From NCBI GenBank assembly GCA_001792345.1, contig MGGJ01000001.1, positions 217,710-281,709 of the forward strand: a DNA stretch of 64,000 nucleotides. Direction: 5' to 3'. Each line of letters starts with the position of its first letter. The stretch's first letter is position 1. Shown one piece after another: positions 61,411 to 63,984 of this stretch. Both the position numbers and the translations under genes were made by a program. Under the pieces are notes generated by a model that had not been told where the DNA came from, searched no databases, and was given only the letters and a program-made list of their open reading frames with translations. This DNA is from Candidatus Woesebacteria bacterium RIFCSPHIGHO2_01_FULL_39_32. GTDB taxonomy: Bacteria > Patescibacteriota > Microgenomatia > UBA8517.

Positions 61411-61560
61411 CTGGAGTCAAATTTTGAGAAACCAATCCTTATTCCAACATTCTCAAGAATGTGAGAATAGGGAATTACAATTGAGGTATTGAGATAGACA
61501 AAGTCAGGAATACATAGGTCGTTACGAAAAATTCAAGCCGGGGTCAAATTTGGAGGAACA
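61411..61560 (+). repeat. Composite element A (motif 61411-61433, hairpin-forming ATTCCAACATTCTCAAGAATGTGAGAATAG 61441-61470, ~65-nt spacer, motif 61538-61560)
   Basis: Hairpin with ATTCTC / GAGAAT arms and nested CATTCT / AGAATG arms; both motif copies are direct. Confidence 0.65.
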
Positions 61561-62247
61561 CTAAAAGGGAATATCGTCCTGTGCTCCTTCGTTTTGATGC
61601 GGGAAACACAATCTGTATTTGCACCAAGCACAAGTGTCTGATTCTTCGGGAACAGGACCATTTAACAATCCAGAAACTTCGTCAATCAAACCATAAAATG
61701 AATCCATATCCTCAGAAATCTCAAACCAGTTAGGTTTGGATGTAAAATTAACCCCGCCATTATTAAATTCAATTGATTCTGGCGAAACAATAACCACTCC
61801 CATTTTGCTAACATTTTTGGGTTCAATTCCGTTTTGAGGGTTTTCTAAAGCGAATTTATAGGCGTGAAGCTGACTGGAAAACTTTTGCGCCTTATCCTCA
61901 TTTGGGTCTGAAATTTTAAAATCAATGACACTAAAACTTCCGTCGTCGAGTTTGGTCAGAAAATCAAACCTTCCGGAGATATAGCAATCATTTTTTGACG
62001 GAATCGCGGCAGACTTCAAATACCCCTCTGCAACTTGAATTTTCCCTTTCGGAAGCTCGGAACTTAAATCCTGTAAATCCATGCCGACTAAAGATTTTTG
62101 CAGCAATCCATTCATTTTAGAAAACACTCCGGGGATACCAATTGAAGGCAAAGCTATTCCGTACTTAACCTTTTGAAAATAACAATGCTTACAATCGTTC
62201 CAAAGATACCTAAAGTCAGAAGGCGAGAGTTTGTACATTTGAGACAA
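61561..62247 (-). CDS. Cas4-like / RecB-family PD-(D/E)xK nuclease with Fe-S cysteine cluster (DUF83-like)
   Basis: N-terminal CKHC, nuclease motifs GRFDFL and VIDFKIS (D...D-x-K), C-terminal CAWCKYRLC (C-x2-C-x4-C) as in Cas4/AddB iron-sulfur nucleases. No cas genes nearby. Confidence 0.6.
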   Translation of the reverse strand: MSQMYKLSPSDFRYLWNDCKHCYFQKVKYGIALPSIGIPGVFSKMNGLLQKSLVGMDLQDLSSELPKGKIQVAEGYLKSAAIPSKNDCYISGRFDFLTKLDDGSFSVIDFKISDPNEDKAQKFSSQLHAYKFALENPQNGIEPKNVSKMGVVIVSPESIEFNNGGVNFTSKPNWFEISEDMDSFYGLIDEVSGLLNGPVPEESDTCAWCKYRLCFPHQNEGAQDDIPF

Positions 62248-62282
62248 TTATACCGTAATTCCGAACAAAAGTCGAAGAATTA

Positions 62283-62446
62283 TGGGGTCGAATTTGGAAA
62301 CAAATCATTCAGAATTATTCCAACATTCTCAAGAATGTGAGAATAGCGATCGAATGAGTTGGGATTTATAAATTGGTTATTTTGTAGAGGAGTTTGTAGA
62401 GAACGGGGGGATAGAAAATTTGGCAGGGGTCAAATTTAGAAAAAAT
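62283..62446 (+). repeat. Composite element B (motif 62283-62304, hairpin 62317-62346, spacer, motif 62422-62446)
   Basis: About 85% identical over ~120 bp to element C. Confidence 0.7.
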
Positions 62447-62466
62447 TTAGAGAATATTAACCAGTG

Positions 62467-63255
62467 CTACTTTAATTCAAATATAACATCATAATTATTT
62501 CTCGGTTGCCACGAATGATTACTATCGATTATTTCACCATTACCTCCTATTGTCCTTGTAAATACAAACATCTTTCCGTCATCAACTATATTTTGTTCTG
62601 CAAATGCTAATCCTGCTTGTGTTAAAGTGTCTTCCGATTCGACAGTGATAAAATAATCCTTTCCTCCCATCAATTGAACAGAACGATCTAAAGGAAAGAT
62701 AAACAAACTTTCTTTCGCAATGTCAGCCGCTGGAAATTTCCCGGCAGCTAACATATTAGTTAATTCAACAGTTTTCGGGTCATTCAGTTCGTAAATGTTA
62801 AGGATCAATGAATTACCAATACCAAAACTTCCTTTAAATTGGATCGACGAAATTCGCTTATTCTCTTCTTGATGAAAACTTTGTCCCATCTTTTGAGATT
62901 TATCAAACACAAATTTAACTGGTAAATAATTAGTAAAATAAGGAGGATTTTCTAGCTCATTTATTTTTTTAATATACTCGGATATCTGACTTTCTAAACT
63001 GGATATCTCCTCACTTAATCTTTCTTGTTCAGCCTTAGTCTCGGAAATCTCCTGATTTTTTTGTTCTAAACTCTCTGAAATAGAAGATATTTCTTCAGAT
63101 CGTTTGTTGCTTTGCTGATAAAAATAAGCACCAACAGCAATCGCTACTATTAAAAAAATTGAGAAAACAATAATTATAATCCACAATTTTGGTGACTTTT
63201 TTACAACTTGTTCGGGTTGAGTGTCGATTTGACTATTCGAAAGTTGCTGTTCCAC
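62467..63255 (-). CDS. Membrane-anchored coiled-coil protein with C-terminal extracytoplasmic domain
   Basis: GTG start; TM helix at residues 24-45, a Ser/Glu-rich coiled coil, and a 150-aa C-terminal domain. Confidence 0.4.
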   Translation of the reverse strand: MEQQLSNSQIDTQPEQVVKKSPKLWIIIIVFSIFLIVAIAVGAYFYQQSNKRSEEISSISESLEQKNQEISETKAEQERLSEEISSLESQISEYIKKINELENPPYFTNYLPVKFVFDKSQKMGQSFHQEENKRISSIQFKGSFGIGNSLILNIYELNDPKTVELTNMLAAGKFPAADIAKESLFIFPLDRSVQLMGGKDYFITVESEDTLTQAGLAFAEQNIVDDGKMFVFTRTIGGNGEIIDSNHSWQPRNNYDVIFELK

Positions 63256-63328
63256 TTATATAAATTTAAAGTAACTGAAACTTTCAGTCAATAGCCGCCA
63301 ATCGAAAAAATATTTAATAAATATATTT

Positions 63329-63350
63329 TGGGGTCAAATTTGGAGAAACA
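63329..63350 (+). repeat. Island motif copy (TTGGGGTCAAATTTGGAGAAAC)
   Basis: Intergenic between 62467-63255 and 63372-63782. Confidence 0.6.
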
Positions 63351-63371
63351 GTTAAGTATGGAGGTTGCGCT

Positions 63372-63782
63372 CTAATATTTTATAAAAACACTTAAAATGA
63401 GGGGTAATAAAAAATCACTTGCGACAAGAATTGTTGCCAAGATTATCGCAGACCGAGGATTGTTAATTTTAATAGTAACAAATTTTCTGGAACTTAACCA
63501 CAAAATAAGTGAAAAAGCTAATATTTTAAATACGTAATTAATAAAAACCGAAATGATTCCTAAAAACGCAAAGAACGATAACTGTACCATAAATATTTCT
63601 GCTGCCGACCATAATAATTGGAGAAAGAAAGCAAGAACTACAGACGTTTTTAAAGATAAACTTACACCTATTCTAAGCCATTTTGATACATATAAAATAA
63701 TAGCGTTAATTAAAAACTTAATTAATAAACCCAGCAAAATTATTATTAAAAATGCTCGCGCAAAAGATTCAAGCATAAACAA
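63372..63782 (-). CDS. Small polytopic membrane protein (4 TM)
   Basis: Hydrophobicity pattern only. Confidence 0.35.
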   Translation of the reverse strand: MFMLESFARAFLIIILLGLLIKFLINAIILYVSKWLRIGVSLSLKTSVVLAFFLQLLWSAAEIFMVQLSFFAFLGIISVFINYVFKILAFSLILWLSSRKFVTIKINNPRSAIILATILVASDFLLPLILSVFIKY

Positions 63783-63837
63783 ATTATCAGTTTACAATAA
63801 TTAGGTTTATCATGCCAATTTATGTTCAATATTTATT

Positions 63838-63984
63838 CGGTCAAATTGGGAGAGTATTGTGTTATTCCAACATTCTCAAGAATGTGAGAATAGCAATTCA
63901 ATGGGTTGGGATTGGTAAATTGGTTTTTGTATGAGAGAGGGGAGGGGTTAGAAAATTTGGCAGGGGTCAAATTTGGAGAAATAT
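63838..63984 (+). repeat. Composite element C (motif 63838-63854, hairpin 63864-63893, spacer, motif 63958-63984)
   Basis: Same architecture as elements A and B. The island continues beyond the window end. Confidence 0.7.

Follow-up and report, generated by a model that had tools for sequence, protein, structure and literature searches.

Hairpin-bearing units of a Woesebacteria gene array as probable remnants of an ArsR/SmtB-fold repressor cassette

A 64,000-nt stretch of the genome of Candidatus Woesebacteria RIFCSPHIGHO2_01_FULL_39_32, an uncultured bacterium from groundwater (hereafter the window), ends in a run of small genes among which three units, here A, B and C, have in common one 30-nt hairpin sequence set between direct copies of a short motif. 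What these units are, and how they came to lie between genes, is the question raised by this locus; the original prediction had offered integron attC-like sites, a MITE-like element, a structured small RNA (sRNA) family or the target of a recombinase. All three units were confirmed at their predicted positions, and the 30-mer identical in all of them (ATTCCAACATTCTCAAGAATGTGAGAATAG) occurs exactly three times in the window, each time on the plus strand, with zero occurrences expected in shuffled sequence.

The units lie in an array of small minus-strand genes that starts at 56.9 kb. Its part in the window (56940–63981, minus strand) consists of small ORFs, each followed within 3–26 nt by a sharply edged 19-bp motif (TTTCTYCAAATTTGACCCC in gene sense), and the array runs past the window end to ~68.1 kb in window-equivalent coordinates. 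The start of the array coincides with a switch in GC skew and gene orientation. The motif has 14 copies in the window, in a single orientation, and a total of 41 sharply edged instances were found at four Woesebacteria loci (the window and three others); at the other three loci, it bounds arrays with different gene content. Reversed genes and a BrnT/BrnA pair lie between motifs of the same orientation, and homologous cassettes differ in order from genome to genome. Each cassette has its own promoter, closer to the start codon than the motif: that of the PD-(D/E)XK gene, for example, runs from 62275 to 62247 (TCGACT-17-TATAAT), just below the low-coordinate motif of B. The essential gene obg, which starts at 64013 on the plus strand just beyond the window, also sits inside the array.

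Several roles of the 19-bp motif were considered. As a promoter it was rejected, since its TTGACC resembles a −35 element yet no −10 element stands at a fixed distance and the cassettes have promoters of their own. As a terminator it was rejected as well, for it has neither hairpin nor T-run and keeps its orientation around reversed genes; the absence of the motif after the genes in the 56 kb of housekeeping genes in the window also counts against this role. Neither the motif nor the palindrome described below resembles any dif sequence known to us. The motif is plausibly the target of a recombinase in an integron-like cassette array, where it would serve as the cassette junction; the prediction of a recombinase target is thus reasonable for the 19-bp motif, but not for the composite hairpin as an attC site. 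No recombinase was found near any of the arrays (11–20 kb of sequence per locus), and in three genomes no IntI was found among the scanned proteins or Pfam labels over 20 kb surrounding the arrays. Scans of viral collections returned zero matches to the palindrome and only two isolated matches to the motif.

Every array boundary carries the 19-bp motif and not the composite, and each composite is a complete unit lying between a pair of motifs. The predicted direct motif copies flank each 30-mer, with the low-coordinate copy of C being degenerate. In A, the low-side motif (61413–61431; GGAGTCAAATTTTGAGAAA on the plus strand and one of the 14-copy window family) is followed by the 30-mer (61441–61470), a spacer (61471–61539) and the high-side motif (61540–61558), which lies 3 nt past the stop of the minus-strand ORF 61561–62238. 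In B, the low-side motif (62284–62302), an exact 30-mer (62317–62346) and a spacer (62347–62425) that holds motif-like half copies (GGTAAATTGG-type and AAAATTTGGCA) are followed by the high-side motif (62426–62444), 23 nt past the stop of ORF 62467–63255. In C, the degenerate low-side motif (63839–63853; GGTCAAATTGGGAGA), an exact 30-mer (63864–63893) and a spacer (63894–63962) are followed by the high-side motif (63963–63981), beyond which obg begins. In all three units the motifs and spacers are assigned to the minus strand and the palindromic 30-mer to neither.

The spacers of A, B and C measure 69, 79 and 69 nt, respectively. The claimed similarity of B and C was borne out (90% over 67 nt and 92% over 38 nt, with an indel in the G-rich stretch), and TTTGGCAGG precedes the second motif in both, as proposed, but not in A. 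Nor is A homologous to the others over the full length of the unit: its 30-mer matches at 30 of 30 positions, whereas its spacer is unrelated to those of B, C and a further unit D (31–37% identity). That the 30-mer stays identical while its flanks have diverged or are unrelated speaks for retention of the palindrome itself, by selection or by gene conversion. The series does not end with these three units: the fourth composite, D, which faces a convergent gene, follows just past the window end, as does a version that contains a gene. A small ORF spanning C (63833–63988) was discarded, since the frame is open only in C and is interrupted by stops in B and D.

The 30-mer had been described as two nested short inverted repeats; its dominant symmetry is instead one 28-bp near-palindrome, ATTCnnACATTCT-yr-AGAATGTnnGAAT, with a single mismatched pair of arm positions. 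The meaning of this palindrome is suggested by an intact cassette located 2.1 kb past the window end (window-equivalent 66061–66494; 5745–6178 of L008). Read in the plus direction of the window, this cassette consists of motif, palindrome, a gene for an 89-aa protein of ArsR/SmtB fold, a second palindrome, a 70-nt spacer and motif; read in gene sense (the minus strand of the window), it consists of motif, a spacer of ~70 nt, palindrome b, the gene, palindrome a, ~10 nt and motif. The central TTGAGA of palindrome b is the −35 element of the gene, followed by 17 nt, TATTGT, 6 nt and the ATG, while palindrome a encodes the last nine codons (the alpha5 helix, ...ILTFLRKLE) and the stop.

In the alignment, B, C and D equal the intact cassette minus the gene between its two palindromes. 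On the left, motif and palindrome of the composites match the 3′ end of the ArsR-like gene; on the right, palindrome, spacer and motif match the region upstream of that gene. The spacer of B has its homologue in the stretch that precedes the promoter of the intact cassette (F), that of C is 80% identical to the spacers of F and D, and that of D is 82% identical to the spacer of F. On the minus strand, every composite reads ILTFLR(M/K)LE-stop (ILTFLRMLE-TAA in A), which is the C-terminus of the ArsR-like gene, and IL(K/T)FLRxLE ends most of the 120 closest homologues. Recombination between the two directly repeated palindromes would delete the gene and leave a single hybrid palindrome, its left arm from a and its right arm from b, with the spacer on one side and the motif on the other, an arrangement that B, C and D show exactly. 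As in solo-LTR-type deletion, the composite keeps one hybrid repeat plus both outer flanks and has lost the interior, although the repeats here are palindromes of 24–30 nt in a bacterial cassette and not the LTRs of a retroelement. Composite A matches the other three in architecture and 30-mer alone and has a different spacer; since this spacer bears no relation to the intact cassette, the palindrome of A could have been acquired independently rather than left by a deletion.

Drawing on the observed cassette anatomy, the homology of the composites to the intact cassette, the family-wide link of palindrome and gene, the overlap of palindrome and promoter, and the ArsR/SmtB fold, we favour, with a probability of roughly 0.7, the reading that the four composites (A–D) belong to a Woesebacteria-type array as non-coding cassettes and derive from the cassette of a small autoregulated ArsR/SmtB-fold repressor gene, with the palindrome as putative operator. 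An odd structured element would thereby become interpretable as a decayed regulatory cassette. The composites have lost the −10 element and the start codon of the gene's promoter, so no regulatory output is evident from them. The most likely function of their palindrome would be that of an orphan operator for the ArsR-like repressor. From the position of the palindrome and the habit of the protein family, the repressor made 2.1 kb away would be expected to bind it as a dimer; if so, the orphan palindromes of A–D may still be bound and serve within the array as decoys or roadblocks.

The assignment of the 89-aa protein to this fold comes from several sources. It scores above the cut-offs of the Pfam families HTH_24, MarR and HTH_5, its AlphaFold model has a pLDDT of 96, and the best matches of the model in the PDB are CadC, CzrA, HlyU, ArsR, SmtB and NolR (TM 0.75–0.89), with which it has in common the alpha1–alpha5 winged-helix arrangement. 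ArsR/SmtB proteins bind 12-2-12 inverted repeats located upstream of or within genes (PMC8790569). The palindrome, too, is a long inverted repeat, with two arms around a 2-bp centre, and it overlaps the −35 element and spacer of the gene's own promoter. The system differs from the known ones (SmtB, CzrA, CadC, HlyU and NolR) in that the arms are longer (13–17 bp) and nearly perfect, a second palindrome is built into the 3′ end of the gene, where it covers alpha5 and the stop codon, and solo palindromes are found in frame within housekeeping genes unrelated to it. The protein also contains no Cys, and its NCBIfam metalloregulator score (39 bits) is below the cut-off of 55.

The hairpin also occurs in many other genomes of tiny-celled bacteria: a family of palindromes of 28–36 bp was collected from at least 120 metagenome stretches, in 147 distinct contexts. 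The family consensus, ACATTCnnAYATTCT-yr-AGAATRTnnGAATGT, is symmetric out to 32–36 bp and of the 12-2-12 two-armed type. The ArsR-like gene directly adjoins the palindrome in 26 loci, is the only recurrent neighbour and often lies between two palindromes 310–350 bp apart. Among the 27 genes with an upstream site, TTGAGA occupies the palindrome centre facing the gene in 17, and a −10-like hexamer follows TTGAGA by 16–18 nt in 14; the palindrome thus takes the promoter position of an ArsR/SmtB operator at these genes, while gene and −10 are absent from the composites of the window. No transposase, HUH protein or recombinase recurred near the palindromes when 1,562 neighbouring ORFs were clustered. 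The putative repressor–operator pair is widespread in Patescibacteria, for which, to our knowledge, almost no transcription-factor binding sites have been described.

Other properties of the family go beyond a simple operator. Symmetric positions covary well above shuffles across the family, and the two palindromes of one locus often differ from each other while each is internally symmetric; neither is required of a simple operator, which hints at a hairpin or cruciform constraint or at a palindrome-generating mechanism. The central dinucleotide is CA or TG in 72% of sites (~49% expected). Of 152 sites, about 12 are in-frame parts of unrelated housekeeping genes; in-frame sites were seen in PurB, FolC, QueA, DinB, TsaD, TatD, Lgt, TruB, RsmI, Ddl and RT-like ORFs of different genomes. 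No conserved regulon was found among the sites, and this combination is more in keeping with an element that spreads than with a regulon of the classical kind. Compared with solved homologues, the in-frame palindrome adds 14 residues to QueA, 7 to RsmI and 12 to TsaD. PurB, by contrast, has no insertion: xLxILKNIKI is already encoded at the spot of the palindrome in close homologues, and the site is common to a PurB subclade, which together suggest evolution in place and retention. Since an exact 29-mer with sharp edges occurs in five other MAGs of different lineages and inside purB, an artefact of sequencing or assembly (an adapter, for example) was considered; it was rejected in view of the structured natural variation, the conserved position at the promoter and 3′ end of a gene and the sharing within the PurB subclade.

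Against this background the readings first proposed for the units can be weighed. An attC site is an imperfect inverted repeat (R″-L″...L′-R′) of 55–141 nt with RYYYAAC and GTTRRRY cores that folds as single-stranded DNA; an integron has one at the 3′ end of every cassette, with an IntI-type tyrosine recombinase and attI beside the array. The array recalls sedentary chromosomal integrons and CALINs in its single orientation, its small and diverse accessory genes (toxin–antitoxin pairs, acetyltransferases, nucleases and unknowns), its repeated site close after each gene, its ORF-less, paralogous and occasionally reversed cassettes and a cassette order that varies among related genomes. Its junctions, however, are a sharp, unstructured 19 bp rather than a folded attC; no inverted repeat was found at simple array boundaries and no structured imperfect palindrome across them; its cassettes have their own promoters, an essential gene lies inside, and no integron integrase was found within reach (the 20 kb surrounding the arrays in three genomes). 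The composites do lie in a cassette array and do contain a stable hairpin, and B folds better than its shuffles (z = −3.7), but for A and C the gain over shuffles is nil or slight, the folds differ among copies (z-scores from −0.4 to −3.7), and the consensus fold of five copies is the palindrome hairpin alone, with compensatory change at 0 of 12 predicted pairs among the local copies. The proposed 45-nt stem closed by CCAAC and GTTGG is the minimum-energy fold of B taken by itself but not of C, and is absent from the consensus fold; CCAAC is one arm of the 28-bp palindrome, and its GTTGG partner, present in the spacers of B and C only, is a chance or relic match. Both boxes are missing from A and from all simple cassette boundaries. 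Rfam gave nothing relevant for the whole window at gathering thresholds or for 56.5–64 kb at E≤5, a scan for tRNA and tmRNA found none, and the element reads as the 3′ end of a gene. With an inconsistent fold and a hairpin as the sole common structure, an attC-type site or a structured sRNA family is hardly credible. A GC-rich stretch at 56960–57215, tried separately as a structured element, also folded no better than shuffles. MITEs have terminal inverted repeats and a target-site duplication around a non-coding unit of 50–500 bp; the ends of the composites are direct copies of the 19-bp motif that bounds every cassette, which leaves little of the MITE-like reading, and no duplication flanking the palindromes stood out in the tabulated flanks.

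Two further explanations share observations with the decayed-cassette reading. The palindrome may be a small selfish or mobile repeat, akin to REP or the Rickettsia RPE, that spreads in CPR genomes through intergenic DNA, cassettes and in-frame genes, with the ArsR-fold gene as its core gene and each composite having acquired a copy. The 30-mer as the sole feature common to A and to B and C, the in-frame sites with their added residues, the sharp-edged 29-mer in different lineages and the symmetry kept site by site all speak for it, and a single-copy gene between two palindromes with dispersed solo copies, some in frame and adding a short peptide, recalls RAYT genes between REPs and the RPE. 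The flanked gene, however, encodes a winged-helix repressor and not a Y1/HUH transposase, and we know of no catalytic capacity in such an 89-aa winged helix; no mobility gene recurs near the sites; copies are few (the 64 kb here have three, each of them within the array, and contigs of 270–560 kb have 1–4 strict sites, one or two per stretch) and several are intragenic, against tens to hundreds of extragenic REPs per genome; the element spans 28–36 bp as opposed to the 100–150 bp of an RPE; and, judged from sequence, it has a clear promoter/operator role at its gene. With PurB pointing to evolution in place, and with homology between B, C and D and the intact cassette on either side of the palindrome, a pattern directly explained by deletion, a mobile palindrome is rather unlikely as the source of the composites. 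Alternatively, the palindromes could be lox- or dif-like recombination sites (arms of 11-6-11 or 13-2-13) at which a host recombinase excises and integrates the ArsR-like gene as a mini-circle, the composites being post-excision sites. The composite palindrome is exactly the left part of a plus the right part of b, as expected of a central crossover, the central dinucleotide is preferentially asymmetric, and the 28-bp size and arm layout resemble what we take to be recombinase core sites. Paired sites, however, are mostly symmetric internally and different mutually instead of reciprocal hybrids, no recombinase co-occurs with them, a and b are directly identical over 24 nt, enough for ordinary homologous or slipped-strand deletion, and TTGAGA as −35 and TGA as stop codon also explain the asymmetric centre. 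This alternative is quite improbable.

More broadly, and as a speculative possibility, the palindrome and its 89-aa ArsR-fold gene may form a self-propagating element of CPR bacteria, possibly also of DPANN archaea, with the layout of REP/RAYT but a DNA-binding protein where those have a transposase, that writes inserts of ~10 residues into housekeeping proteins, while the 19-bp-site arrays of Woesebacteria may be an attC-less, integron-like cassette system with a recombinase, the composites being the meeting places of both. Both the family of palindrome plus repressor and the Woesebacteria arrays with 19-bp junctions are apparently undescribed in the literature searched. If driven by a recombinase, the arrays would broaden the integron concept to include the Candidate Phyla Radiation, and the in-frame palindromes in essential genes offer a route to study the origin and persistence of long palindromes in tiny genomes. 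The unit of gene and palindromes recurs in another Woesebacteria genome (L139), where it is again followed by a motif-like site.

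The three composites A, B and C lie at 61411-61560, 62283-62446 and 63838-63984, and their coordinates, spacer lengths (69, 79 and 69 nt, respectively) and internal repeats agree with the original prediction. So does the identity of their 30-nt sequence: ATTCCAACATTCTCAAGAATGTGAGAATAG has exactly three copies in the window (starts 61441, 62317 and 63864, all on the + strand; 0 in 100 shuffles), each flanked on both sides by direct copies of a 19-bp motif, GGGGWCAAATTTGRAGAAA. The nested short inverted repeats once described within this 30-mer resolve into a single 28-bp near-palindrome (hereafter the palindrome). 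B and C share 90% identity across a 67-nt stretch and 92% across one of 38 nt, and differ by an indel within the G-rich part. A, taken for a third copy of the same unit, shares the layout and the 30-mer (30/30), but its spacer is unrelated to those of the other composites (31-37% identity), and the lead-in TTTGGCAGG claimed for all units is present in B and C but absent from A.

In L008, a sequence of the window's contig from another sample, a fourth composite, D (6516-6660), was found just beyond the window end, together with a gene-containing cassette, F (5745-6178; window-equivalent 66061-66494). In window + sense F runs from a motif through palindrome a (ATTCCAACTTTCTCAAGAATGTAAGAATAT), a minus-strand gene for 89 aa, palindrome b (GTTCTCACTTTCTCAAGAATGTGAGAATAG) and a 70-nt spacer to TTTGGCGAGGGGTCAAATTT, in which the lead-in precedes the boundary motif; the spacer matches those of C and D at 80-82% identity. 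The composites are homologous to this intact cassette part by part: their left part aligns with the 3′ side of the gene and their right part with its upstream side, and their palindrome is the left of a (ATTCCAAC) joined to the right of b (GTGAGAATAG). No ORF is conserved across the composite copies; the minus strand of every one encodes ILTFLR(M/K)LE followed by TAA, and an end of this type forms the C-terminus in most of the best 120 homologues of the 89-aa gene. Given the left and right matches to F, the hybrid palindrome and the retained C-terminus, B, C and D are, as judged from sequence, the intact cassette minus all that lies between the centres of its two direct-repeat palindromes; A shares this arrangement but not the spacer. 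The composites themselves are ordinary in kind, deletion remnants with a predicted operator, and they expose two systems, an ArsR-type palindrome/gene unit and an attC-less cassette array.

In B, C, D and F the second motif has the lead-in AAAATTTGGC(A/G) (lead-in plus motif at 62407-62444 and 63944-63981 in the window and at 6516-6553 and 5745-5780 in L008). This lead-in repeats the motif core in inverted or degenerate form and can pair with the 19-bp motif (AAAUUUGGC/GUCAAAUUU), and the spacer holds a third motif-like sequence, GGTAAATTGG; these extra copies could be accessory sites.

The 89-aa protein passes Pfam HTH_24, MarR and HTH_5. Its homologues form at least 594 clusters, mostly of 87-92 aa, and those with an annotation are named as ArsR-family or winged-helix regulators from Patescibacteria. 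Its structure model (pLDDT 96) has the canonical alpha1-alpha5 ArsR/SmtB fold, with CadC, CzrA, HlyU, ArsR, SmtB and NolR as best PDB matches (TM 0.75-0.89), and its alpha5 helix is encoded by palindrome a. Among the matches listed, homologues of this gene were the sole recurrent neighbour of the palindrome sites (26 loci; 1,562 nearby ORFs), typically with a palindrome on either side, the two being 310-350 bp apart. Among the same matches, the upstream one lies at the promoter: its centre TTGAGA faces the gene in 17 of 27 genes, and 16-18 nt beyond it a -10-like hexamer occurs in 14 of the 27, with the start codon a few nt further on. The downstream one overlaps the stop codon: in Parcubacteria-type genes the TGA of the palindrome centre ends the ORF (...TFQHS-stop), and in Woesebacteria-type genes the ORF spans the entire palindrome (...ILTFLRKLE-stop). 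ArsR/SmtB repressors are known to recognise 12-2-12 inverted repeats, whether these lie upstream of a gene or inside it (PMC8790569).

Whether the 30-mer occurs elsewhere had been raised with the original prediction. When one-genome-per-species contigs were searched for an exact 24-mer, seven loci matched, spread over five other MAGs (Patescibacteria or DPANN-labelled); identity there stops sharply at 29 nt and the flanks are unrelated. A degenerate-pattern metagenome scan returned at least 120 stretches with the palindrome, in at least 147 distinct contexts. Among the matches listed, the forms met most often have full symmetry (ATTCCAAC...GTTGGAAT or ATTCTCAC...GTGAGAAT), the CCAAC...GTGAG form of the window is a minority hybrid, symmetry reaches 32-36 bp, the central dinucleotide is preferentially an asymmetric CA or TG, and symmetric positions covary far beyond shuffles (pair 5/24, 77% complementary versus 50%; pair 6/23, 69% versus 39%). 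The ArsR-like gene, its flanking palindromes and further solo copies are also present on DAOSAR010000009.1 (L003 and L007), a contig under the name Candidatus Pacearchaeota archaeon (DPANN), which may be due to inter-domain transfer or to misbinning. A masked run of Ns occupies 675-773 of L007, ~40 nt away from a palindrome.

The best-supported reading is that the palindrome is the predicted operator of an autoregulated ArsR-like repressor. The gene would have been lost from cassettes via recombination between its two palindromes (24 nt of direct identity), and the palindromes left in the composites would be orphan operators, still within reach of the repressor, whose gene is 2.1 kb away. The layout of the composites and their homology to the intact cassette are shown; both repressor binding and any regulatory effect we infer. 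The flanks of A, B and C have diverged or are unrelated, yet the 30-mers are identical (30/30), which argues for upkeep of the palindrome through selection or gene conversion. Since the composites lack the -10 and start codon and the downstream genes have their own promoters, any effect of an orphan palindrome would be that of a decoy or roadblock, not of a promoter.

A REP- or RPE-like spreading palindrome, or a hairpin/cruciform constraint, is kept alive as an explanation by about 12 of 152 sites, among the matches listed, that lie in frame mid-ORF in long, unrelated housekeeping genes of different genomes (PurB, FolC, QueA, DinB, TsaD, TatD, Lgt, TruB, RsmI, Ddl and RT-like). These palindromes of 28-30 bp leave their host genes intact and encode decapeptides of the types HSNILKNVGM-, IPTFSRMLEC- and TFSHSQEYKN-; examples from other CPR genomes are L004 6018-6046 (purB) and L001 894-922 (ComEC-like), with others in the fetched stretches L124, L035, L061, L091, L019, L068, L106, L043 and L076. 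Spreading or a hairpin/cruciform constraint is likewise kept in play by the 14, 7 and 12 extra residues of QueA, RsmI and TsaD, respectively, at the palindrome relative to solved homologues, and by the two palindromes of one locus, which are often unlike each other yet each internally symmetric. PurB has no length change at the palindrome; because its close homologues already encode xLxILKNIKI at the site and a PurB subclade shares it, sequence comparison suggests in-place evolution or conversion followed by retention. Against spreading stand the low copy number and, among the matches listed, the lack of any transposase recurring near the sites, and the predicted ArsR-type operator is preferred.

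The other identities proposed for the composites were rejected. An attC-like site is not supported, given the lack of an attC-type inverted repeat or of such structure at ordinary boundaries, the absence of an Rfam match, and no IntI in the 20 kb scanned around the arrays of three genomes. As for a structured sRNA family, only the palindrome hairpin is common to the copies, no pair has a compensatory change among them, and fold z-scores are inconsistent. The ends of the composites are direct copies of the array junction, unlike those of a MITE, and an artefact is ruled out by the structured natural variation and conserved genic context of the palindrome.

Small minus-strand ORFs, mostly uncharacterised, make up the array (window 56940-63981). 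Before it the dcw cluster ends with ftsA and ftsZ (52.3-54.8 kb), and from 56.9 kb on the genes face the other way and GC skew has the opposite sign. The 19-bp motif occurs 14 times from 56943 to 63966 and nowhere in the window's first 56 kb; it lies in constant orientation 3-26 nt past the stop of each array ORF, and in the same contig from other samples (L008-L013) the array runs on past obg to ~68.1 kb window-equivalent. Three further Woesebacteria loci (L136 3084-12066, L138 9331-18730 and L139 6991-9006) carry the motif between differing small accessory-gene sets; its consensus in gene sense over 41 instances is TTTCTYCAAATTTGACCCC, with sharp edges and unconserved flanks. Because reversed genes, and also a BrnT/BrnA pair, are found between two same-orientation motifs, homologous cassettes differ in order among genomes (for example, PD-(D/E)XK gene, Ser_hydrolase gene, multi-copy coiled-coil family), each cassette has its own sigma-70-like promoter ending ~8 nt ahead of the start codon (for example, 62275 to 62247 and 60633 to 60606) and intrinsic-terminator-like sites number 0 versus 2.6 expected in 59800-64000, the motif appears to act as a junction between cassettes rather than as a promoter or a terminator. 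The near-start promoters suggest leaderless or near-leaderless cassette mRNAs. No recombinase was found in the sequence fetched around each of the loci. Literature searches (sequences, peptides, CPR/Woesebacteria cassettes, integrons and ArsR palindromes) returned no description of either system; the phylum-wide ArsR-type palindrome and gene unit, like the attC-less array with its 19-bp junction, appears to be a variant, so far undescribed, of a known kind of system.

Directly after ftsZ (~54.8-56.9 kb), at the array start, cumulative GC skew reaches its peak and genes switch from + to -, and the essential obg (+ strand, start 64013) lies inside the array along with a CHRD-like gene. A 62-nt direct repeat (81% identical; 56896-56957 and 59894-59955), ending in the array motif, brackets 3 kb with an Amidase_3 gene (58103-58786, + strand), a 348-aa NucS_C/PD-(D/E)XK-like gene (58794-59840) and two tiny ORFs, which may be a larger composite cassette or integrated unit. 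Small proteins of one coiled-coil family (~95-101 aa, ...AYLEDDAPTxEE..LEKRV...) occur in several copies per array at every Woesebacteria locus examined (window 59959-60264, 61056-61385 and an apparently truncated 57314-57466; L008 6218-6514), directly downstream of the ArsR-like gene in L008 and L139. The array start at 56960-57215 is relatively GC-rich, has no Rfam match, folds no better than shuffles and holds a single doubtful ORF (75 aa, 56975-57202, minus strand); near it, the NCBI assembly (L009) and L008 differ by a 61-bp indel.
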